From Lama glama (lineage: Eukaryota): DNA of 60,000 nt. Location of the stretch: positions 73,844,001 to 73,904,000 of the forward strand of contig CM052816.1 of the NCBI GenBank assembly GCA_028534125.1, given 5' to 3'. Below the pieces are notes generated by a model. It was given only the letters and a program-made list of their open reading frames with translations. It did no database searches and was not told the DNA's origin. The translations under genes were made by a program, and so were the position numbers. Position 1 is the first letter of the stretch; the number at the start of each line of letters is the position of its first letter. Shown piece by piece: positions 1 to 59,684 of the stretch.

Positions 1-60
1 GATCGTATCTTGTGGTAGACAGCTCTCTCAAGATCACAGATCAAAATCTTCACCTTTAGT

Positions 61-270
61 ATGAAAACTTTATTCCTTTTGCCTTTTCACTACTTGCTTT
101 TTCTCTCTGTCGATGCATGTGAAGACAATGCGCCTTTACACTGGCAACTGTTGCTGAATCTACTGCTAAGGATAAGGCTGCACAGCAAAAAGTCCCTAGA
201 TTTTCTTGCTAAGGTGGGTTTAGATAATAGAATTAGTTTAGATTATTTATTGGCTAAACAAACAAAATAA
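61..270 (+). pseudogene. Internally deleted ERV1-class env remnant (signal-peptide-like N-terminus plus TM heptad/immunosuppressive domain)
   Basis: The ORF ends in KSLDFLAKVGLDNRISLDYLLAKQ, resembling the gammaretroviral ISD (L.NR.ALD.LLA). An adjacent frame reads LATVAESTAKDKAAQQK, like the preceding TM heptad. The N-terminus MKTLFLLPFHYLLFLSVDA is hydrophobic. Confidence 0.75.
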
Positions 271-13500: not shown

Positions 13501-13567
13501 CAAATTATTTTATTTAAAAATATATATGAAGGAGTACCACTAGCAAGTAATCAAGAGCTTTTAGTTG

Positions 13568-14290
13568 TGCAGTTTGGTGCAGCCATTATGGAAAACAGTA
13601 TGGAGATTTCCCAAAAAACTAAAAATAGACACACCATATGATCCAGCAATCCCATTTCTGGACATATACCCAGAGGGAACTTTAATTTGAAAAGATACAT
13701 GCATCCCAATGTTCATAGCAGCACTATATACAACAGCCAAGACATGGAAACAACCTACATGGCCATCAACAGATGACTGGATAAAAAGTTGTGGTATATT
13801 TATACAATGGGATACTACTCAGCCATAAAAAAGAATAAAATAATGCCATTTGCAGCAACACGGATGAACCTGGAGATTGTCATTTTAAGTGAAGTAAGCC
13901 AGAAAGAGAAAGAAAATACAATATGATATCACTTATATGTGGAATCTAAAAAAAAAAAAGACAAATGAACTTTTTTACAAAACAGAAACTGACTCACAGA
14001 CATAGAAAGCAAACTTATGGTTACCAGAGGGGCTGGGGGTGGGAAGGGATAAATTGGGAGTTTGAGATTTGCAGATACTAACTACTATATATAAAAATAG
14101 ATAAACAACAAGTTTATACTGTATAGCACCGGGAACTATATTCAATTATCTTGCAGTAAAGTATAATGAAAAAGAATATGAAAACAAATATATGTATGCG
14201 TATGTATGACTATTACACTGTTCACCAGAAATTGACACAACATTGTAAACTGATTATACTTCAATTTTAAAAAATTAAGAAAAAAAATCT
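13568..14290 (+). mobile_element. 5'-truncated young L1 (ORF2 C-terminus, 3' UTR and A-tail), cetartiodactyl/camelid type
   Basis: Translates to [49 protein letters not shown]. The 3' UTR ends gacacaacattgtaaactgattatacttcaat plus an A-rich tail. Confidence 0.95.
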
Positions 14291-14687
14291 AGATAAAATC
14301 TTTACAAATAGACTATAAATGTTAAGGGTTTCCCATCTCTTTAGTTGATAAGATAAAAAACACTTTTTTAAACTTCATGAAATTTCCATCAGCTAAAAAC
14401 TACCCTTTTTCCCATATCTACTTAGCCAATAATTAAGCCAACCAACCTATATGTGGCCTTTTCCATTGGTTAATTAAGTCAAAGGCATTTCCAAAGTATA
14501 AATTCTCCAAGAATTTTCTGCCATGGAAAAGCAGGTCTTTCCAGACAAATATCTAGCTTCTCCTTTCATTTTATCCTAGACAATGTAAATTTTGTATAAC
14601 CTATCTTCTTTGCCCTTTTAGTCAACTGACAGGGAGTTAAAGTTTGTACTCAACTGCAATAATTATCTCAAATCAGGTACCTGAAGA

Positions 14688-14862
14688 AATTGTTTTTCAA
14701 CCGCTTCTAAAATTGAGGTCTTAGGAAGGCTGTGCTTCAAGAAGCCCTGAGCAACCTGAAATTTTATACAAATTTTTTCTAGGATAAATGCCCATCTCTT
14801 CCACCAAAATCTCAAAATAGTTTATGACAACTCTCCCCAGCTGTTATAAATCACTGCCCTAA
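14688..14862. mobile_element. Possible old hAT-Charlie MITE
   Basis: ctgaaattttatacaaattttt core and a terminal gttataaatcactgcccta. Confidence 0.4.
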
Positions 14863-14904
14863 ACGGTTTTTAAGCTCTTGGTTTTCTTATTTCTTCTCAA
14901 ATTC

Positions 14905-15243
14905 TCGTTATTTTCTAGCTACTATTGAGGCATAACAAATTATTACAAAACTTAGTGACTTAAAACAACATTTTACTACGCCTCACCGTTTCTTTGAGGT
15001 GAGACTTCAGAAGGGACTTGGTTCTGGCTCCGGGGTGTCTTAGGTGGTTGCAGTGAGACGGTAACAGAAGCGTAAACATCAGGAGATTAAAGACCTTGAG
15101 GGCTGGCCAGGCATTTCTGTCTCTTCATGGAGTCTCAGCGTCTCGCCCTATGGTTTTTCCACAGAGATTAATTTGAGCTCCTTCACATGCAGCCCCAAGG
15201 CAGTCAGACCACGTACCTGACTGCTGACGGCTGTGAGAAAAAG
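14905..15243 (-). mobile_element. MLT1-family MaLR LTR, left portion
   Basis: cataacaaattattacaaaacttagtgacttaaaacaaca...gttctggctccggggtgtcttaggtggttgcagtgagacgg is typical of a reversed MLT1. Confidence 0.8.
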
Positions 15244-15245
15244 TA

Positions 15246-15999
15246 GAGCATTCCTCCCTTATCGGCGGTTTCAGTTACCCACAGTCCGAAAATATTAAGT
15301 GGAAAATTCCAGAAATAAACAATTTCTAAGTTTTAAATTGCCCGCCTTCTGAGTGACGTGCCGAAGTCTCGCGCTGTCTTGCTTTGTCCCGCGAGACTTG
15401 AATCATCTCGGCCTCCGGGCAAATCTCTTGCACCTCCGTTATCAACTATCGCGGCATCTCAGTTCCTGCGTTTAAGGAGTCGCTAACCGCCCCAAAGCGC
15501 AAGAGTAGAAACATTGCCAATTCAGATATGCCAAAGAAGAGCCGTAAAGTGCTTCCTTTAAGCGAAAAGGTGAAAGTTCTCAACTTAATAAGGAAAGAAA
15601 AATCTGCGTATGGGAACATTGCTAAGATCTACGGTAAGGACAAATTTTCTATTGGTGCACTTATGAAGAAGGAAAAAGAAATGTGTGCTGCTTTTGCTGT
15701 CGCACTTAAGATTGCAGGAAGTTGCAGCCACAGTGCGTGATAAGTGCTTCATTAAGATGGAAAAGGCATTAAATTCATACAAGATGTTTTCAGAGATCAC
15801 ATTCACGTAACTTTTATTACGGTACCTTGATGTAATTCTTCTATTTTGTTGTTATTTTTGTTAATCTCTTCCCATGCCTAAGTTATAAATTAAACTTTAT
15901 CATAGATGTGTATGTATAGTTAAAAAAAATAGTATATATAGGGTTTGGTACTATCCACACTTTCAGTCATCCACTGGGGATCTTAGGACACACCCCCAC
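15246..15999 (+). mobile_element. MER44/Tigger7 internal-deletion derivative (TcMar-Tigger) inserted in the MLT1
   Basis: TA at 15244-45 is followed by TIR-like gagcattcctcccttatcggcgg and gaaaatattaagtggaaaattccagaaataaacaat. The right part tatatatagggtttggtactatcc...tttcagtcatccactgggg matches MER44. The outer right TIR appears to be missing. Confidence 0.9.
15528..15740 (+). pseudogene. Tigger/pogo transposase N-terminal CENP-B/psq-type HTH fragment (70-aa open frame)
   Basis: MPKKSRKVLPLSEKVKVLNLIRKEKSAYGNIAKIYGKDKFSIGALMKKEKE fits the RK.L.L.EK..IAK.YG..S.I..I.K pattern of pogo-family transposases. Confidence 0.85.
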
Positions 16000-16110
16000 A
16001 ACTCTATTCATTGAAGCAGTCACGGAAGTCCAGTCACCCAGTTCTAAAAAGATTCCATCTCTTGATGGGAAGAGTGACAAAGAATTTGTGGACACTGTAA
16101 AACCATGACA
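16000..16110 (-). mobile_element. MLT1-family LTR, right portion
   Basis: ctctattcattgaagcagtcac...ccatctcttgatgggaagagtgacaaagaatttgtggac...aaaccatgaca continues the MLT1 interrupted by MER44. Confidence 0.75.
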
Positions 16111-16787
16111 TTTTGGATATGTGTGCATTATGAATTATTGATAGTAGGTAATGGTAATTGTCTGTGTAATTTAGGACCAAATTAAAAATCTCTTTGGATT
16201 CCACATTATGTCAAATAATAATATTATGCTTTATGGCTTTTAATAAATATAGTCTGCAATAGCTGTGACTAATTTTGATATTCAGATTGTAAATATCTCC
16301 CTCTCTGTAATTATATATATTATTGTTATATAATGATTTTCATAAAAATGACAGATCCTACTCTAATCAAGAGTAATTGTACCCTGATTTATCTTTTGTA
16401 TCCAGATTTTAACTATAAAGTTTTCTCAAAGCTGGATGCTCCTATATCATAACCTAGAGGGTGGCACAGTTTTGGCAAATTTTCTGGGTGAATGATTATG
16501 CTAATGTAAATTAAAACTTTTTGGTCATGAGTTATTAATTTGTTTATTGATAAAAAATTTAAATTTAGCATATGATTAACAGTTCTGAAATCCTTAGCCA
16601 AATTTCTGAGCTACACTAGAAACCATGAGAATATTCTATAACCAACTATTTGTAAAATTCAGTCATTTATTCTTCAGATAGTTAACATCAACTCACTATG
16701 CACAGCATTTAAACACATTCTTAGACAAATAACATATCATCACACAACATAATATATACTATGTTTTAAAATACAAAATGTTGTAAA

Positions 16788-25050: not shown

Positions 25051-27099
25051 TGCAAATTTATTTATTTATTTTTATTCTGTTTACTCAAGAATTGTTGGCT
25101 TAGATTTTGGTTAATTCTGGTGCAATAAAACCTAGAAAATAGTCCCTTTTTGGCTGAAGTAATTCTCTGTTTATTCCAAGGAAATATGTACAGGGTTTGT
25201 GAATATACCCAGCACTACAGTATCTGACAGGTCAACTAAACACATGCTTAGGGCACCCTCAAGGCAAATAAGAGAGGGAAAAGAGTTAAGAGAAAGAAAA
25301 GAGAAGGTTATCAGAAAATCTAGAAAGACGCCATCTTATTTTCAGATTCCACTAAGATTTACTTTGAATAAAACACTACGGGTGGGAGAGATGAAGAGAA
25401 TAATCTTCCCAGTACTTGGGGTCTCTTCAGGTCTCAATGTAGTGCTGGGACAAACCAGCTGTTTTTAGCTCTTTGTGTGTGTGTCCATTTTAAAGATTAT
25501 GCAGTCTCTTTTCAGGATGCAATGAGGAACAAGGAGAGTCTAGATGGAAAGTGAAATATAATAATTAGACATTTAGTATATAAAAGAAATTTTATTGGGC
25601 TCTGTCCAACACGTAGACCTTTATCAGAATTACTTTTGTTTTTCACTTAGTAAAGCCTCTAAATAACAGAGATCCTCATATGCAAGTACAACTTCAAAAT
25701 CAGCTTCCAAAAAAAAAATCTCACTTTTCATCTTTCAGAAACAATTCTACACACAAAAGAATTTTGAAAACTCTTTGCATCTGTGATAGCTAGACAAACT
25801 AAGCACTTCAAAACCAAACATTTCATGGGGTGTTTGGTTGAAAGGGGAAGTGTACACTTTTTGAACTGGGTGTTGGCATTCCCCCAGATGTCACAGAGTA
25901 CACCTTGTAATAGTGTGAGTACGCCTCTGCTGCCACTCTCTCTGATCAGTTATGTTCCTGTTGTTGGCTAAGATTGAGAGAGGATGGTGAGACTGGCTGC
26001 GAGGGGATGAGTATTTAGAGGAGGCATATAACTGAGGAGTAGACCAGGCAAGCCAAGCCCGCACTGCAGGTTACTTACCCAGTTTGCCTGGAGGCCTGTC
26101 TTCAGCCCAAACATAGAACACAGAAGATTCCTATTTCCTCTTTCTTCTTCTCTGATACCACCAAGGAAGACTTTCTGACCACTGAAAACTCAACAGCCAC
26201 ATACCATTTCCAAAGGAGGAAAAGAAAATAGTCAGGTCCCCACATCTCCTGGAGTTGAAAATTTTTGAAATACATATTTTTAGTTCTTAAAAAAAAAAGT
26301 TTAGTTCTCAAAAACACTGTTTATAATAAATCATATGTCTCTGTTTTTAAATTGTAATCAACTATATGGTGAAAGCAGCTCTTTTATAAAAACTCTGAAA
26401 TTAAAACAACCACTTAACACTCCAACCTAATGCCTGCAGTAAATCAAATGTCTTTGTTGTTTAGATTTTAGCTCAACAGGTCCATATAAAAAAGGAGTTT
26501 TAGCACTATTTATAAGAAGAATTGTCTCTCCAAACCCATCCAACAATTTTTTTTCATTCTTTAGGTAAAAACTTCAGCAGGAACGTAAGTGAGGTACAGG
26601 CAGGCTACCAATAACTTTTTGTGCCAGACATTATATAACAAGGCCAAATTCTAATGTACACACAAATGTACAGCAGCTTAAAAGAAGCGGTTGTTCAAAA
26701 AAGTATCCAATAAATCATTGCCAAGGAGCTGTGAGGGCTGCTAGGGCATCTGTGTTAAACCACAATTCTGTCACTAGTATACTGTGTGACCTTGGACGTA
26801 TCACTTAACCCCTCTGCTTCTCGGCTTCCTCTTATATGATCCCTCTACCACTCACTCTACATCTTTCCAGGTCCACGTCTCCACAGAATAGTCCAGGTGG
26901 TGAAATATTCCTTTATAGTCTCCCAAAAGGCATTTGCCTCATGACTCTATGAATCTGTTCTAAGAAGAGCATAATCCCGTGGCTATTCTTTTATGGACAA
27001 AGCAGACTCTTCCTTTAACTAGATTTTCCACTCTCACCAAAGACAGTGGAGGAAAGGAGATAAAGGAGAGGAGCCCAGCATAGAAAGGAAAAGAATCAT

Positions 27100-35200: not shown

Positions 35201-37759
35201 TACTAGTGAATAACATTTAAATCCATTGATATGAGAAGAATTTTAAGTATTTTTCAAATGCAGATGTCTGTAGAATAATGAATTCAGTGAAGTCTTGACT
35301 TTTATTGAGAACTGTTTAAAAGAAAACCCATCTCCTCATGTTGGTTCAACAGCAAAATTTATTGAAATTCAATTGTTGTCAATTCCTCAGCTTTTTGTAA
35401 TTGTGGGCGATCACTAGACACAACATTTTCCTGAAGTGTGAGCCAAAGCCCCAGATGCCTGCCCAGATTCTATCCTTTCCAATTTACTTTGACATCCTCA
35501 GTTCCTTTCATAGGAAATGAACATTAGCCTCTTATGCGTCCTGCCTCCCCGGTGATATCCCATCTGAAAAACTATTGTCAGAAACCAGTCAGTTCTTACC
35601 TGACCCAGACACATAATTGAAGTTTAATTCTACAGGTGTTTGGCAGATGAACTGAGAAGCCTCTGCAATTTCCATTTTCATTCTATAACCCCACTGTCTG
35701 GTGCTTAAAACATTTCCCCCTTCTTACTGAATGTAACTGAACGTTAAAATAGTTAATAAAGTAAGACCATGCTGTAATTCCTGCTATTTACTGAAATCTG
35801 CGAAGTTGATGTATTGTTTTCATCATTTTGTGACCCGTTCCACATTCTGGCAAGGGCCTGCTCCCAGCTTGACATGATGAGCTGTGGCATCATTCATGGA
35901 AGGATAGAGAGCTTGCCGAACAGTTAGTTCTCTGACTGATGGAATATCTTGTAAGATCTGGCGAAGGCCTCAGCCTGTAGGCTTCAGGAAAATCAGAAAA
36001 AGGGGGGAAATGTTACATGTTTGTTCCTTTTATACACGTTACCTCCGATACAATTTCCTTATGAGCTTGCTGGCAACTCTAGAAGCAAATGGACTATTTG
36101 TTCCTCCATGGGAATTTTCAAAGCCACAGGATAATGGTTTCAAAGAAAGGAAGGGGGAATGATGAAATAACAACAATGCTATTACCCTTTCAAGGAAAAA
36201 AAACTTCCAGCATATTACAACTGGGTGGTCCAGTTATTACAAATGAATATTTATTTTTTATTTGTTTGTTGGTAATGTGACTTCTTCCAGAAAAGATTTA
36301 AAGCAGCTTCAAAAGAAACTTATAAATATACAGGAGATTAAGACATATAATGAAAAAAATCAAAGGAAAACTAAGGGGAGAGAAAATGAGAGGGAGAAAG
36401 GAATTCAGTAAGTAAAGTTCATGTTATGTCCTTTGCTTGGCTAAAGGTTTGTGACAAATTATTAATATTACTTTTTAATTAAATAAATTAATAAATCCAC
36501 AAGTAACAAAAGCACTGTTTGTAAAAGGAGGACATAGAATTGAAGAGCTGTAAAAGTTGTTCTTGAAATGATGATGGTAGAATTCTTTGTAGGACAGCCA
36601 TTCGTGTCACTAAGAAATGGACTAATTTTACATTGGAAGCAAATGCCATGACTGAGATGCTCTGTTGCACTTTTAATCCCCAAGTTCCTAAACATTAAAG
36701 CTAAGAATAGTTTTATTGTGAGTTTATATTTATCTGTTAGAGACCATGACATGAAATTTTCCACATACAGAAGTATTAATGATTTGCATCCAGAAAGCTG
36801 ATATCCTAGTATTTCATCACAATGATAGATGAACTATGGCACCACCAAATCACACAATCTGCACCCAGCTCTCTGTTGACTCGAGAACAGTTTCTTGCAC
36901 ACCTGTGGAAGAAAATTCACCACTGGATTAAACAGTAGGGGAAAATTACTCCCTTTCCCAAAAGAGCAGTCAATTCTCCCCCATGGTTTTTGACAGTTTA
37001 TTGCTATGCACTGTGAAGTTCACATCTAGGAAGTATTCTATTCAAGAATCCTGTGCATGACAGATGTCCTGATGTGGCAGGGTGATTTTTCAAAATCACT
37101 AGTAGCTACCTTTCACTTTTCCGCCAAAATGGCAAAGAGTTGAGAACTGCACTGGCTCCTCCCCCATTGCTGCTTTCTCTGTTGCCAAACTGGACATGTA
37201 CAAAACTGGACATAAAGAGAAGTTCAACTGATTGTAAAATGCCTCTTGAGTCTTTTACACTACTCTACCCTTCAGTGACATCATGGACCTTTCTATTCTG
37301 GCCAAAACACTGGCAACATTTTAAGCTAATGTTAAAATTTTCATATTAAGCTGCAAGGGGTTTGTACTGGCCTTTTTCTTGGCACCAGTGTAGTGCAGTG
37401 TGATCAAGTTCCAGTGAGTATCAGCATGCTGAGTAGTGTCCTTGGAAACATAATGCTGTGTTTCACAGTGAGATCTCCAAAACTTCTTCAAGGTGGGTTC
37501 CAGCCCAAAGTTTGAATACATCACAGAAGATGGCCAAATTCTCCTACAAATGAAACACTTCGGTTACTGAGAGGTTAAGAAGTGTTGAAGCATGCCTCCA
37601 GAACCTCTCACTTTCATTTACAGAGGCCTGTTTTGTGGTATCAAGGGACAGAATCACAGCCTTCCTAGTTGCTCTTTCCCTCTTACCCAGGTTCACTCAT
37701 CTATTCCTGTATCCATGGAAGTAGAAATAACCTACATCATCAAAACACAAAAAATATTA

Positions 37760-37942: not shown

Positions 37943-39112
37943 TAAATTTTAAAAAGCATGAGGCTATTGAAAATTTCTTTTAACTCCTTGGAAAAATGCA
38001 CCATAAAAATAATAAATTCTTTGAAACTTCTGAAAATTTTTCCATACCAACCATGAAATTACTTGGGAACATAATTAATGAAGCCGAGAAGGCCACATGG
38101 ACAACACAAGCTCTGCCTCCAGTCCAGACAAGCTGAACAGCTTAGTACTATGTTTGTGAGTCTGTTGCAAGTTGCTGTTTGTTAACCTACACAAATTAAA
38201 TAATGGCCAACTAAGTGTCAGTAACCTTCAGGTCTTCCCAGGATGGTGGGGGCTCACGGGGCATAGGCCACAGTCATTTCATTACTCATAATTCACCTAG
38301 ATATTCAAAATAGTGCAAACTCCCTGAAAAGACCCTCTTTGTTTCATGAAAACCAGAAAAATTCTATCCAACTGAGGGTTTAGTAAGATGCCTTCAACTA
38401 ATCCGTGGCCTGTGGGTTCACTGGGAGCTAGTTTGGAAGGTCAAAGCTTACACACAAGGGAAAACAAAACATGTGCGAATGTAGCTGAATCTTTCGTCCC
38501 AAAGCGGTGCTGGAAAACTCATGTAAATATACAAATACACTGAGCTGTATTGTGAAAGGAGCCATTTGTTTTACTAAAACAAGTTGGTATGGTGCAAGAT
38601 TTTTCTTGGCAAATAAACAGAACACAGTGGAAAAATTTGTAAACAATGATGTTTTCTGGCAATTTTTAAAAAACTGAATGAACAGCCTTTCCAAAAGGTA
38701 AAAAACTTCCTTTTCCTCAATCCCCCATGAGATACTACTAACATATAATCACTTTAAAAGTCAAAACAGATGAAGAAATACAGCTCGATGATCAGCAGAG
38801 CTTGTTAAAAAGACCATTTGGTCACTAGAAGAGCTAACCAGCCAAATGCTCAACTTGGAGAGCGGTGCAGACCAAGCCAGCCTCGCCAGAATGGGCAGTC
38901 TCTCCATGATGGTCGCACACTAGAGTTCCGGAGGTGAAGAAATCACTCCTCTTCCCAGAATTCCTGTTATCTTAGTCCTCGTCACAGTGACGAAGGTTCA
39001 AATACAGGAATTGCTTTACTTACCAAATGTTACTACAGAGACCAAATGTTCTTGCTTAAACACAAGTCTCATTGGAAAAGTATTGGCTGAAGGTCAAAAA
39101 TATGGAGAAGAT

Positions 39113-39255
39113 GGGTGGACGGTATAGCTCAAGTGGTAGAGTGCATGCTTAGCATAGTCCTGGGTTCAATCCCCAGTACCCCCTCTAAAAATAAATAAAT
39201 GAGTAAACTTAGTTACTTCCCCCATGAAAAAATTAATTAATTAATTAATTAAAAT
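39113..39255 (+). mobile_element. tRNA-derived camelid SINE (Vic-1 type)
   Basis: A box TAGCTCAAGTGG (39125-36), B box GGTTCAATCC (39163-72), ccccagtacc, and an AT-rich tail with (ttaa)n. Confidence 0.9.
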
Positions 39256-39879
39256 TTTAAGAATTTAAAGATTAAAAAAAAGAGAGAGAAGAAAAGTTCC
39301 CCAAACGTAAGGTATATGATGTTAGCTTAAGAAATCTCAGCCTAGTATGGTCACACCTGTCTCCTGAGCAGATCCAAATCAAATGGATAAAGTCTGTCCT
39401 TAGCAAGCTGTACATCTTTTTTTCTACTTGGCCATTCGAAATGGTTGACCACACACACACACATACACACACACCCCATTCTGGACTCATTGTCTGACTC
39501 ATTTCATTCTTTAACATGCTCGGAAGTATATTTACATCAGATTTACGTTCAAGCTGCAAAGGACTGTGAATGTCTAAGATCAATTTATGTACAAAACATT
39601 TTCAAGTGAGAATTTTATACACTTTACCATACATAATTGTATAAAACTACGCATAAAAGACATACATTGTGTTTTGTTATCCAACGCCAATTCCTCCTCC
39701 CCAAGGAACTGGTAATAATCCTTAATTACTGTGGTTAAGAGACTAATTTTGGTGCAATTCTAGATCCTTTTCTCTGTATCTCACACTAGACTTAATCCAC
39801 CTAGTTTTCACTAGGATGTATCCTTACTTCAGGTTTTCCTCCATCAAAGTTCATAGATGCTACTTAAGTACTTAAAGTC

Positions 39880-40390
39880 TGTCTGCTCTCAGCCAAGTAA
39901 CCAATGTTAACAATCTGTTAACAACCTGTGTATATATTGTATACTCTTCTGCATGCTCACATATTCCTATAAAACACATGTATGTATATGAATGCACATA
40001 ATTTGATATATATATTAAGATAGATGTTGGGAATTTTCTTTGATCGTCAAGAATGAGGCTATATACATACATACATATATTTTTTTCTCACTTAAGAATA
40101 TCTCATGAGGGGAGGGTAGAGTGGTAGAGTGTGTGCTTAGCATACATGAGGTCCTGGGTTCAATCCCCAGTACCTCTATTAAAATAAACAAACAAACAAA
40201 CAAACAATCCTGATTACTCCCTCAAAAAAACAAAGAATATATAATGGAAATCCCTTCAAGGATTAATTTAGCTCATTCCTTTTAATGGTGGTTAATAGTT
40301 CATAGCAAGTATTTTCCAGAATTTAAGCAACCATTTCTCTATTGATGGGGATTCATTTCATTTTCTGTCTTTTCCCACTTAAAACAGTTC
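39880..40390 (-). mobile_element. Old L1ME-type 3' fragment hosting a SINE
   Basis: tcattccttttaatgg...aatttaagcaaccatttctctattgatggg is typical of a reversed L1ME. Confidence 0.6.
40108..40232 (+). mobile_element. tRNA-derived camelid SINE (Vic-1 type) with TSD
   Basis: ggggagggtagagtggtagagtgtgtgcttagcatacatgaggtcctgggttcaatccccagtacctc with a (caaa)n tail. TSD AAGAATATCTCATG (40094-107) versus AAGAATATATAATG (40233-46). Confidence 0.92.
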
Positions 40391-46883: not shown

Positions 46884-47919
46884 TAGATTACATTATGGAA
46901 TAGGTGTTATTTTTATTAGGTATAACAATAGTATTGTGATTATATTTTTAAGCCCTTCTCTGTTAGCAATACCTACTGAAGTAGTAATAGGTAAAATAAT
47001 ATGAAGTCTGGAAAAATCTAGGATTTGTTCCCAGTTGATAGGAACGCGAAGAAAGCCAAAGCATGAGGAAAAAGATAAAATAAAACTGGCAAATTACTGG
47101 GAATTGATGAAGCTGGGTGATAGATACATTGAAGTTCAGTATACTAATTATCTTTGTTTTTATGGGTGTTTGAAAAGATTTTTAAAGTTCTTGGACAGGT
47201 TCAGGTATGACACATCAACCATCAACAGCTCTAGCCAGAACCTGTCTAACTGATCCTTCTTGATACGACTGAGAAGCATATATACCACATACTTAACACA
47301 CACATGATGCTGTGTGCTCATCTTCCACCCTCGTTACTCAAGTATCTCAATTCTGCATGGCCCCAGGCCAAGGAAATAAGGGACTGAATACAGCCCTAAA
47401 AAATAATAGACAACATGAGTCAGCTGGTTCCACAAGCTAGTGACACCATAAAAACATTTGATTGGGGGCTAGCCTGGTTTAGGGTAATGTTGGCTTTACT
47501 TATGTTGGATGAGAAGTGTGTTTGTTGGGACCCTTAATGTGGATGTTCCAGAATAATGACAATATTTAGATATCAAAGCTGAATGAAAAATGAGACACTC
47601 CCAAAATTCATAAACTGGATTTACAACTCCTTTCTGGCACCATGCTTTCTCTATGGACCACATCACAGAAGGATCTCATTAGAAATAAAATACACAAACA
47701 GCGTATGTGACGACTTTGCAATCCTCTAATGCTTCGGGGCTAGTGGACTAGATGTGCAAACAACAACACTATCAAATGATCCCAGAACAACATCTTAAAT
47801 CCCTTTGTGAAATATTTGGTGCTGTTGAAAAAAAAGAAAATTGTGACACAAGATCAGCTGTAAGAACACTGTTATGCAGTTTTAAATGATAAAAATTAAA
47901 ACTTCTGAAAAAAATACTT

Positions 47920-48109
47920 CTGAGTCATAGAAAGCACACAGATTTTTGAGTCAGGCAAAGGTTCATTCAAATCCCACTCCCATCACTTGCCCAGGTGTGT
48001 ATCCTGTGGGCAGGCTGTTTAACTTCTCCAAGCCGCACTCTCTTCATTTGTCAAGTGGAAATGAAAAGGCCTATTTAACAAGGCTGTTGTAAGGATTAAA
48101 GACGATCTT

Positions 48110-48142
<33 letters not shown>

Positions 48143-48195
48143 CAAGCCCTTAGTAAAACACATAATAAGAACTAAATAAATAGTAACTATTATAT
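47920..48195 (+). mobile_element. MIR SINE containing a (CA)n repeat
   Basis: ttcaaatcccactccatcactt...tcttcatttgtcaagtggaaatga...gttgtaaggattaaa. Confidence 0.8.
48110..48144. repeat. (CA)n microsatellite
   Basis: About 17 AC units with one interruption. Confidence 0.95.
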
Positions 48196-48648
48196 TACAT
48201 CAGTTGGATTGACAAAATGTTCTAGCCATTTAAGATGGGAGGCTCTAAAATTGTTTCGCTATAAAACTGGAAAAAAGGAGTTCAACAAACCGTTTTAAAG
48301 ACTATTTCAGATCCATAACAAAACATGAACACTTAATGGATCATTTATCAATGCTGAATGCAAGTCTCCTCTGATGTGGTGCGAAGAGGTATCTAATTCT
48401 ACATGCAAAAGCCAAAATTACATTACTGAAAATGCCTTGGGTGAAGAGAACAGTTGGTCAGTGGAAATTTCAGTTTACTGTTTCCTAGTCATGAAATTTC
48501 CATCGGTCCATTTACCACATCACTTTAATTGCTTCTCATTGATTCCTGCCCAGCCTGGTGTGCAATTCCCATGGCTACGCCTGCCTTGTGTGCTCATCCA
48601 TTATTTCGCCTCGAAAATGCATTTACCTTTTTCTTTGTCACATAAATA

Positions 48649-48943
48649 CAGTCTTCCCTCAGTATCCGAGGGCAATTGGGTCTGAGACCCCCGTAGATAC
48701 CAACATCCATGGATGCTCAAATCTCTTATATTAAAATGGCATAGTATTTTCATATAACCTACACACATCCTGCTGTATACTTTAAATTGTCTCTAGATTA
48801 CTTATAATACCTAATACAATGTAAATCCTATGTAAATGGTTGCCAGAATGAGGCAGATTCAAGTTTTGCTTTTTGAAATATCCTGTAATTTTTTTCCCAA
48901 ATATCTTTGATCCACAGAACCTGGAGATACAGAAGGCCAACCC
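48649..48943. mobile_element. MER2B-like TcMar-Tigger MITE
   Basis: TA-cagtcttccctcagtatccgaggg ... gatacagaaggccaaccc-TA; internal tactttaaattgtctctagattacttataatacctaatacaatgtaaat. Confidence 0.9.
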
Positions 48944-49380: not shown

Positions 49381-50284
49381 TTTTTTTCCCTCTTGGTAGT
49401 TAGGATTCTATCTTGTAATTACTGTATAAGCTTTTAATATTATTTATCAAATAATAAAAATACAAGCTCCAAGCCAATAAATACCTTATCATTCATCTGT
49501 GTGTCCCCAGTGCTTTAACTTAGACCCTGGCAGATATATAAACAATCTATTTTTGTGGAATGGATAAATCAGTTGCTGTCACACAAAAATGTAATTATCT
49601 TCAGTAAAGTTGCGAGATTTTTGCTTCATTTTGTTTTTTAACCAAATCTGAAGAATTTCATATTACTCATTACCAACAGACTAACATTAATTTTTAAAAA
49701 CATTCTGATCTATTAATTTACTACAAACCCCCTGAGAATGTTACATGAGCAATAATATGTCAGTAGTCTAGTATTTTTGGTACTTACATGCCCCTCTTAT
49801 AAATTCCTAATTCTACCAAAATCCACCTCTCTGCCTATCTGTGCCTAGCATGAGAAACTCTGTGTGACTAAAGCAAACCACCATGCCATGGGTCTCACTT
49901 TACATTTCTTTCCAGCCACCTAAAAGGGGCTCTTGATACTGCCTGGCAATTGTCATGTCCCTGGTCCATTCACTGTACTGCTTGCCCAGAAATCTCTCTC
50001 TCAGTGCTCTATTGGAACTGCAGACACCTCCTCCGTCTCCTCCTCCTCAGCTCTGGGCCTTACAGAAAACAGAAGAGCAGCTTTCACATCTTCCCCTCAC
50101 CACACCCACTGCTCTATGCACCCTGCCTCCCTGCCTGTTAGAACCGGTGAACTGCCCACGCTCCGAGACCAGCTCCTGAGCGTTTCCATGGTTTTCGTCT
50201 GCTCTCACTAAATCCCTGTCCTGGCTTCTGCGGTTGCTCCTACTCTCTTCTGCATCACAGTTTTCCTCTCGCTGGATCAGCAGC

Positions 50285-50930
50285 GTTATTTTCTTCTTCT
50301 TGAAACACTTCTTTCCCTTACTTATGAGATATCACTCCCTCTTGGTTCTTTTCCTTTTTCAGTGGCTGCTCTTATTTAGTCCCCTTTGCTGATTTTTTCC
50401 CTTATCTTCCAAAATGTTAAATGTTAAAGTACTAAGACCTATTCTGTTCTCTATCCATACTCACTCCTAGGTGAGCTCAAGTTGATAAATTCTGTCGATA
50501 CCTTTATGACCTTCAACCCCAATTTCTCCCTGAACTCTTGTCTCTTACATACAGCATTTTCACTTAGATTATTAAAGGCATCTCAAATTGAATATGTCCA
50601 AAATTAAATTCTTGATTTGCCACCCCAAAACCTACTCCTCTCCAAATTTTTCTCATTCCAATGAATGGCAACTCCATCTTTCTTCTTGTTCAGGCCAAAA
50701 ACTTTAAAGTGACCCTTAACTCTTTTCACTCTATCAGCAAATCCTGTCGGCACTGTCTTAACAATAAGTATCGAATTTGACCACTACTCACTGGCATTGT
50801 TAATATACTAACTGGAATCACTGACATTTTACCAAGAGATTATTGGCCTCCCAACTGGTATCCCTGCTTCTGTCCCTGCTCATCTTCAGTCAGCTGAATA
50901 GCAGAGTGATCTTTTTAAAAATATGTCTCT
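50285..50930 (+). mobile_element. L2 ORF2 3' region
   Basis: cttcttgaaacacttctttccc...aggcatctcaaattgaatatgtccaaaattaaattcttgat...aatggcaactccatctttc...cagagtgatcttttt. Confidence 0.85.
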
Positions 50931-58080: not shown

Positions 58081-59684
58081 TTTTGCAATTTCGTCGGAAG
58101 GCAAGGAGTTCATCATTCTACAAGTAGAAGCTCTTAGTCAACCTCCATTTAACCAACTCACCACATTAACCAAAGCTCTCCATTTACATCTGTAAAATAC
58201 ATTGACTCACACCCACTGCACGGTGAATGCTTAGGGCTAGAAGGCTATCTAAACACTCATGAACATCTGTTTCTACCAGCCAAGTTGGATGCTTAACAAG
58301 ACACAGTTTGGTTTTGTTCCCAGATATGTTTATGCCAGTTCTAGTTGTAGTTACACAACATTAATTACACAACTTAAATAATTACTACATCAATCAAATA
58401 TGAGTTCAAAAACTGGTGTCAAATGAGGCGGGCGTGAGACAAGCATAGAAGATTAGGGAGAAACATAACAATCTAGAAGAGTTCTGCATTCAGATTGGTT
58501 TGAAGATGTTTTTAGAATCTTGCTCTAATTTCTCAAAAAACCTGGAAATCTTAGTTGATGGCTTATGGGTGTGTTTTATGCAAGACAGACAATGCACAGC
58601 CTTCCTAGGGTCTCAGACTTTAAAAGGAAGTAACAAGAGATCATAAAAGAATTCATAGTAGAGAATACTTTAAAAGTGGCACAGAGGTATAAGAATAGTG
58701 TCAAAGAAGGCAAAATACAGCTTTAGCTCAAGACTGTGGAAAAACAGAACAATTAGCGCTCTTTAAACTGTATTTAGAGAAAAATGAGAGCGTGAGAGGT
58801 GAAAGTCTCTGCACCTCTGTAGGTGATGCCACAGTAAGGGGGAGCACAGGTAAGGCTGATCTCGAATCTCGTTTTCCTTCCTTCTTTGTAAAGTATAGTG
58901 AAATTTAGCTGGAAAAGGCAAAAGATAGGACTTTATAAATAACCTCCTAACTCCTCTGGAAGGTGCCTACGTGAGACTTGCACTATTTCCAGGTTTAAAT
59001 TCAGAACACATCCTTCGCCTGCTGACTCTGCTGTCAGCCATCTTCAAGGAGTCAAGACAAGCAGCAACAGCGCTGACAGGGGGCAAGCATATTCCCGACC
59101 CTCCAAAAGTGGCACGAAGTAGATACCGAAAATGACCAACTGGGAATATACTAACCATCCTCAGCTACATTCTAGAACAAATTATTAAAGCCTCAGACCA
59201 TGAGCATCTAAAAAGGGAACAGTGTTGAGTGTGAATCATGATTAGTTCACAGGAAACAGATTCTACCAGAACTCACCCATTACTGTTTTTATGTTTATTA
59301 GGTTAGTCAGTTTCCTATTTCTGTGTATTTTTGGAAAAACATTTGCCAAGCTTTTAAAGATACCCTTCTGGACAAAAAGTGAAGACATGTGAGTTCAATA
59401 GATTTATTGTTGTTTGTACCTAAAATGTCCTGATTAATGGATCAAAGTCAGCCTTGGAGAGGAGTCCGGAGCACATGTTGTTCAGTTTCATCCTAAGCCC
59501 TACAAAATGAGGAAATTTTTTTTTTTTACTTTCAGTGAATTCAGTAAGAAAATTGGTGCCATACTTGCAGGTGGCAGAAAGTTAGAAGGTGCATTCAACC
59601 CGTTGGATGGCAGACTCAGATCCCTATCCCAAAGGATAGAAAATGGGTCCAAATAAGTCGTTAAAAAAAAATGGGACATTGCAG

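Follow-up and report, generated by a model that had tools for sequence, protein, structure and literature searches.

Partial retention and gain of CpG across a Tigger7/MER44-type transposon fossil nested in an MLT1-like LTR of Lama glama

Introduction

Orphan CpG islands are short, CpG-rich and located away from any recognised gene start (PMC2944787, PMC11170920). The Lama glama site described here is likewise short and CpG-rich, and may also lie apart from gene starts. Promoter signs are reported for 42% of the human orphan islands (Illingworth et al. 2010, PMC2944787; Kocher et al. 2024, PMC11170920). The same sources describe species-specific orphan islands as tracking enhancer activity and name, as one origin of such islands, transposon promoters that decay while keeping their function. 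The orphan islands of those sources were defined by capture of non-methylated DNA or by chromatin, whereas the Lama glama site is recognised by a sequence rule; on that footing it would behave as a weak orphan CpG island or as a germline hypomethylated repeat. It also differs in its borderline G+C content and in being built almost entirely of two old repeats. Repeat DNA is depleted in CpG islands and the repeats inside them are mostly young (PMC12582260).

Cattle sperm offers a second comparison. There, single copies of repeats go unmethylated, including some that lie inside older repeats (PMC7339546); at most 3.3% of elements are hypomethylated and the unmethylated islands carry fewer C/T variants. 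The cattle set consists mostly of young Bov-A2 SINEs near known gene starts, whereas both elements here are ancient. MaLR/MLT first exons of oocytes (Franke et al. 2017, PMC5538554) are alike in that a solo LTR of MLT type carries a splice donor close to its 3′ end, which here could form a first exon, and a porcine MLT1B first exon is known (PMC12313397). The oocyte MLT LTRs, poor in CpG, are transcribed from their own promoter; here, in contrast, a DNA transposon has split the LTR, and it is this insert that contains the CpG peak. Members of the same transposon family, MER44/Tigger7, have been co-opted as regulatory DNA in the form of AP-1 inflammatory enhancers (PMC12212084), but that use depends on somatic activity of JUN/AP-1 motifs, which would leave germline CpGs unprotected. 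Finally, CGCG/BANP promoters resemble our site in having TCTCGCG words within a TATA-less CpG cluster (PMC6192621, PMC10206803). The CGCG element is methyl-sensitive and drives two-way transcription. Its exact form, TCTCGCGAGA, is absent at the island, and several flank variants lowered activity in the experiments described in those sources.

Neither this locus nor retention of CpG in MER44 copies is treated in the literature covered; the orthologous site may figure in the island tables that supplement PMC2944787 and PMC11170920 or in the hypomethylated-region tables of PMC7339546. It is uncommon for an island to be made of old repeats. Sister copies reveal the ancestral state of the transposon, and the site thus records both escape from methylation and island formation, with retention separable from gain. 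Proof of germline promoter activity would turn it into a clear example of how two defunct transposons can give rise to regulatory DNA. A single unannotated site leaves the general view unchanged.

Results and discussion

The CpG-rich stretch

The window, that is the whole 60-kb stretch of DNA analysed, contains 330 CpG (observed/expected, O/E, 0.168); 851-bp stretches of it have a median of 4. Positions 14975–15825 (851 bp) hold 36 CpG at 45.4% GC and O/E 0.82. An earlier note had put the count at about 35 in about 850 bp amid CpG-poor surroundings, and both statements hold. Outside this stretch the window has an O/E of 0.152, which would predict 6.7 CpG here (Poisson P ~2e-15 for 36), the locus having been chosen because it is extreme in CpG. 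The next-best non-overlapping 851-bp stretch has 13 CpG, and a GC-matched control of 73 overlapping 851-bp windows elsewhere (GC at least 42%) gave a maximum of 12.

Two extents can be given for the feature.

14700–15830, no strand: entire CpG-raised footprint in the 300-bp profile, maximum at 15200–15600, tapering both ways over the element borders
14976–15505, no strand: formal weak CpG island by composition rules, 530 bp, GC 50.2%, O/E 0.84, 28 CpG

The shorter of these passes the CpG island rule of Gardiner-Garden and Frommer (at least 200 bp, GC >50%, O/E at least 0.6) and also the 400-bp version of the same GC and O/E rule. No stretch passes the strict Takai–Jones rule (at least 500 bp, GC >55%, O/E at least 0.65). 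The profile in 300-bp bins forms one smooth peak that crosses three sequence units. O/E is 0.5–0.6 over 14700–15300, 1.15 over 15200–15600 and 0.3–0.6 over 15500–16100, and it falls to 0 outside 14500–16300. The peak bins are 15200–15499 (21 CpG) and 15300–15599 (18 CpG). The previously proposed extent of 14975–15825 needs correction on its left, where CpGs at 14702, 14864 and 14906 place the start further out. The left unique flank has 0 CpG in 391 bp and then 2 in 215 bp; the right flank has 0 in 671 bp. An L1 3′ end at 13560–14290 (+), 400 bp to the left of the island, has O/E 0.15. Since this L1 end and the 391 bp that follow it (O/E 0) are CpG-poor, the footprint ends short of the L1.

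Lesser bumps of 12–13 CpG per 851 bp, about one third of the main peak, are found at ~38000–39700, 47900–48850, 49950–50850 and 58300–59250.

Two nested repeats

The stretch appears to consist of an MLT1-like LTR split by a Tigger7/MER44-type element. The repeat names MLT1, MER63A, MER2B and MER20, as well as the subfamily name Tigger7/MER44, are putative assignments.

14906–15249, minus strand: left part (3′ portion) of the MLT1-like solo LTR, drawn by eye; name and strand putative, ends approximate
15250–16000, plus strand: Tigger7/MER44-type non-autonomous DNA transposon fossil, from frame homology; ends approximate
15250–15485, plus strand: CpG core, the 5′ non-coding part of the transposon, 17 CpG and O/E 1.31 by count
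15486–15740, plus strand: transposase N-terminus remnant (HTH psq type), from homology; reading frame lost near residue 108
16001–16109, minus strand: right part (5′ portion) of the MLT1-like LTR, drawn by eye; name putative; 1 CpG, O/E 0.22

Frame 15402–15740 has 31 homologues (best E 4.9e-20). A profile search with this frame gave 1044 homologues, 120 of them listed, and 2340 relatives were found among representatives, 150 of them listed. Some of the homologues listed carry PF04218/PF03221 or HTH psq/Tc5 domains, or are named tigger transposable element-derived. Protein homology backs a Tigger-type identity for the transposon. The remnant itself gave no Pfam match at threshold. Its first Met is lost, Thr being found here where 138/181 relatives have Met. 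The idea of a domesticated mini-protein encoded by frame 15402–15740 was rejected on this ground and because conservation is no higher than in other copies. By eye, the fossil has internal deletions and lacks its right terminal repeat, the right end being apparently deleted; elements of this family have terminal inverted repeats at both ends with a TA duplication, and no such pair for it occurs among the 25 longest inverted repeats of the window. MLT1J and MLT1B rank as older than Tigger7/MER44 in PMC1914374, which agrees with a Tigger7 element nested in MLT1.

The fossil as a whole has 27 CpG where composition predicts 30.1; outside the core, 8 lie in the frame part (O/E 0.69) and 2 in the 3′ part. 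Methylated CpG in old repeats decays to TpG/CpA. The combined TpG+CpA O/E is 0.76 in the core (15250–15485) and 1.19 in the window. Six other DNA-transposon-like stretches of the window, whose names are likewise presumed, have 11 CpG against 65.6 expected from composition, as the earlier note had said in describing such elements as stripped of nearly all CpGs. The left LTR part holds 10 CpG (O/E 0.55, GC 46%); three other MLT1-like stretches (again by presumed name) have 3 in 1078 bp (P 5e-4), and the excess over other LTR-like stretches is about tenfold per composition. Enrichment does therefore cross into the host MLT1, as had been claimed, but on one side, the right part having an O/E of only 0.22. 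A search with nhmmer found no related copy of the MLT1-like LTR elsewhere in the window.

A past recombination hotspot could, through GC-biased gene conversion, have rescued old CpGs and fixed new ones in methylated DNA, with no regulatory role. Such conversion is tied to many orphan islands (PMC11170920). It would sit uneasily with a G+C content of hardly 50% and with an LTR part whose 46% lies inside the 37–47% of the other LTR-like stretches. The share of weak-to-strong changes at non-CpG residues in the window copy (5/12) also matches that of 173 copies (661/1398; Fisher P 0.78), a comparison that covers the frame only and has low power. We regard gene conversion as unlikely.

CpG decay in the transposon family

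The decay of CpG in Tigger7/MER44 relatives was read from protein translations, not from DNA; DNA of sister copies was not found in metagenome, viral or prokaryote-genome contigs. A baseline of 224 copies was obtained from 279 proteins by removing 13 cluster members, 40 proteins of at least 150 residues and 2 fish proteins. These copies come from mixed species and were picked by score, and they cover the frame, the CpG core lying outside. At four CpG-bearing Arg codons Arg is kept in 90 of 617 readable cells (14.6%); an earlier, smaller set gave 54/343. The replacements are His, Cys, Tyr and similar residues, as deamination of CpG yields, and methylated CpG is known to deaminate (PMC12582260). 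Seven further, half-readable CpG sites are kept in 0–36% of relatives.

The window copy has 12 ancestral CpG sites in the frame (classed by hand), of which 6 are kept and 6 lost. Including five upstream sites, which rest on 22–36 rows each, 8 of 17 are kept. The binomial P for 6/12 is 0.009 at a baseline of 0.17 and 0.054 at 0.25; for 8/17 it is 0.0014 at 0.146 and 0.040 at 0.25. Comparison of CpG survival with other copies, which the earlier note had advised, thus places this copy above the family mean when made on translations, but 8 of the 58 fully readable copies equal it on the four Arg codons alone, keeping at least two. Full protection is disfavoured, since 72% survival would be expected without a CpG effect (P 0.027), and rough modelling puts the multiplier for CpG transitions at 2.9 (1.0–6.2) as against 11.

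Some of the CpGs are apparently new: 5 of the 13 in 15430–15740. Three of these are firm, at 15469 (relatives have V in 45/68), 15488 (M in 138/181) and 15563 (E in 196/222); those at 15437 and 15481 are weaker. The locus thus displays partial CpG retention plus gain, not plain retention. What the earlier note had described as retention stands in part (6/12 or 8/17 against 90/617), and another part of it, three to five CpGs, is gain. Its proposal of long-term germline hypomethylation fares similarly, in that reduced decay, gains and spread speak for it, whereas protection was incomplete. Taking partial retention together with the gains, the TpG/CpA deficit and the spread across element borders, we consider it probable that germline hypomethylation of this stretch was long but incomplete.

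These figures also bear on whether the copy is simply the tail of a normal distribution, i.e. a very CpG-rich ancestor whose CpGs were retained by chance while methylated. The core was CpG-rich from the start, 12–17 ancestral sites being readable in ~310 bp; several relatives do equally well on the Arg codons, and with at least a thousand related frames in the family, extremes are expected. Chance retention leaves unexplained the new CpGs, the LTR excess (P 5e-4), the CpGs in the unique flank and the graded shape of the peak, and we judge it rather improbable.

Age can be estimated from the same alignment. At non-CpG columns the window copy is identical to the majority residue in 69% of cases, the median of copies being 76%, and 51 of 200 relatives are as diverged or more. 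The copy is old and without sign of constraint in the frame, as measured beside the core. A young insertion, in which CpGs had no time to decay, would have some precedent in longer, less decayed relatives in other lineages (Arg in 15/21 at two sites). It is ruled out by divergence: 31% of non-CpG residues differ, the start codon and the right end are lost, half of the CpGs are gone, and the L1 3′ end 400 bp to the left has an O/E of 0.15. We give it hardly any credence.

The longer Tigger7-like proteins (at least 150 aa) are of separate interest. Arg is present at two CpG codons in 15 of 21 long or fish frames, and among the longer frames two are named from bats and two from a bony fish. These Arg-keeping frames hint at younger activity or horizontal spread of the family.

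A proposed protected island

Our overall best reading, which we favour by a little over its denial, is a weak orphan CpG island protected by transcription factors. A CpG-rich Tigger7/MER44 copy would have inserted into an older MLT1-like LTR, and the 5′ end of this copy, unlike that of most copies, would have been under-methylated in the germ line for much of its history. About half of its CpGs could then have survived, and new CpGs arising by ordinary substitution could have persisted, also in the adjoining LTR and unique DNA. CpG-rich but A+T-rich DNA is methylated by default in ES cells, according to PMC4204011; with a G+C content of only ~45–50% the stretch would thus probably need bound factors. 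The likely cause of under-methylation would be binding of a transcription factor at the core, with MYB/OVOL-type and BANP-type factors as candidates. The outcome may have been a hypomethylated open site of ~1 kb acting like a weak promoter or enhancer, and its most likely transcript would be non-coding and left-running. For factor binding with promoter-like activity at the core, we see the case as evenly balanced. A selected function is unlikely or even improbable, and exaptation as a promoter or enhancer, as the earlier note had suggested, is unproven.

Signals for a transcript

Splice donors were scored with a frequency table. Four candidates flank the CpG peak.

15211–15219 (donor 15216), minus strand: strong candidate donor directed leftwards out of the core, 10.4 bits, within the best 0.16% of the window's GT sites
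14981–14989 (donor 14986), minus strand: second left-facing candidate donor, near the inferred LTR 3′ end, 8.3 bits, top 1%
15631–15639 (donor 15634), plus strand: candidate donor facing right from the core, 9.2 bits, top 0.6%
14999, plus strand: further candidate donor, by donor scoring

The minus-strand donor at 14986 is ~80 nt from the inferred LTR 3′ end, a placement also described for MLT LTRs in PMC5538554. From the core down to 13686 the minus strand has 0 AATAAA/ATTAAA, against 2.2 per kb, and the plus strand has canonical poly(A) signals at 15768 and 15889. The left-facing donors together with a minus strand free of canonical poly(A) signals mildly favour a left-running transcript.

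Nine motif patterns were tested at the peak, all chosen after seeing the sequence. The following lie at the peak.

15364–15399, no strand: two inverted TCTCGCG words (15367 +, 15396 −), the sole two in the window
15436–15441, plus strand: CCGTTA, the A-MYB/OVOL core, with one other copy in the window

The two TCTCGCG words compare with 0.07 in 2000 shuffles (P 0.002, post hoc) and form a perfect 10-bp inverted repeat. Significance of the 10-bp hairpin as such was rejected, as this length is reached in 11% of 200 shuffles. The second word (15388–15397) is one mismatch from the CGCG/BANP element; this one-mismatch variant has 0 occurrences in the text of PMC6192621. A-MYB and OVOL2 bind CCGTTA cores at piRNA loci (PMC11789646), and MYB motifs mark meiotic enhancers (bioRxiv 2020.03.11.987180). 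At this site the window frame reads R-Y-Q, while relatives have G-Y-Q in 7/13 and R in 1/13; CCGTTA was probably made by one substitution in this copy. The word AAC[CG]G occurs 7 times against 2.9 expected (P 0.028, post hoc). Enrichment was rejected for the general MYB word, with 6 occurrences where 3.6 are expected (P 0.16), as it was for CRE, E-box and RFX words (P 0.07–0.33 overall). CCGTTA, the two TCTCGCG words and the donors to either side are weak promoter-like hints, recognised after the fact.

Host genes were also sought. No Pfam family indicating a host exon was found at threshold in 164 (24 + 140) of the 1049 frames of at least 30 residues, a scan of limited sensitivity given that the transposase remnant gave no match either. 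Short peptide motifs of candidate neighbour genes revealed no convincing exon.

A stronger claim is that of a truly exapted, selected promoter conserved beyond camelids. The site would then be the first exon of a germline lncRNA or of a pachytene piRNA precursor, or would act from a distance on a neighbouring gene, as an enhancer or alternative promoter. The apparent gain of CCGTTA, a core for A-MYB and OVOL2 (PMC11789646), and the candidate donors on both sides of the core would fit, as would the 125 first exons supplied by MLT LTRs in cattle (PMC5538554) and the lack of a coding exon among the 164 of 1049 frames scanned with Pfam. CCGTTA is however single, and divergence of the copy exceeds that of the median relative (identity 69% against 76%), the opposite of what constraint would leave, though as measured beside the core. 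A selected promoter of this kind is in our view improbable.

More doubtful still is a germline promoter of the camelid lineage, assembled de novo from the remains of two transposons. Single substitutions within the Tigger7 copy would have created the A-MYB/OVOL site and the CGCG-like pair, and methylation would have been lifted part-way through the history of the element, leading to half decay and then gains. A germline lncRNA or piRNA precursor running leftwards would be spliced from the donor in the host LTR. Were this true, the time at which a CpG island arose could be read from which CpGs were lost and which were gained.

Expression leads and other features of the window

A search of sequencing runs with 14300–16700 listed 24 runs, of which 18 contain part of the stretch. 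Twelve of the 18 are RNA or guessed RNA, from four studies, with shares of 0.05–0.20, all but one flagged as small. Four of the five highest-share runs, from one study, are labelled ‘reproductive system metagenome’. We treat these matches only as a lead, as RNA runs can hold DNA and the shares do not give position, strand, tissue or expression.

The sole Rfam match in the window is tRNA-like, at 39118–39184 (+; 31.3 bits), and a second similar stretch with an A-rich tail lies at ~40110–40190. We presume that both are most likely tRNA-derived SINE copies. Frame 19–270 (+), which has no Pfam match at 1e-3, is probably an endogenous retrovirus remnant; we take its end to resemble a retroviral envelope transmembrane region. 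The coding-looking stretch at ~37250–37600, with no Pfam family at threshold, is possibly a decayed processed pseudogene. At ~26565–26590 (+) a pyrimidine tract, an AG, ~20 nt and a consensus-like donor give, by eye, the look of a micro-exon.
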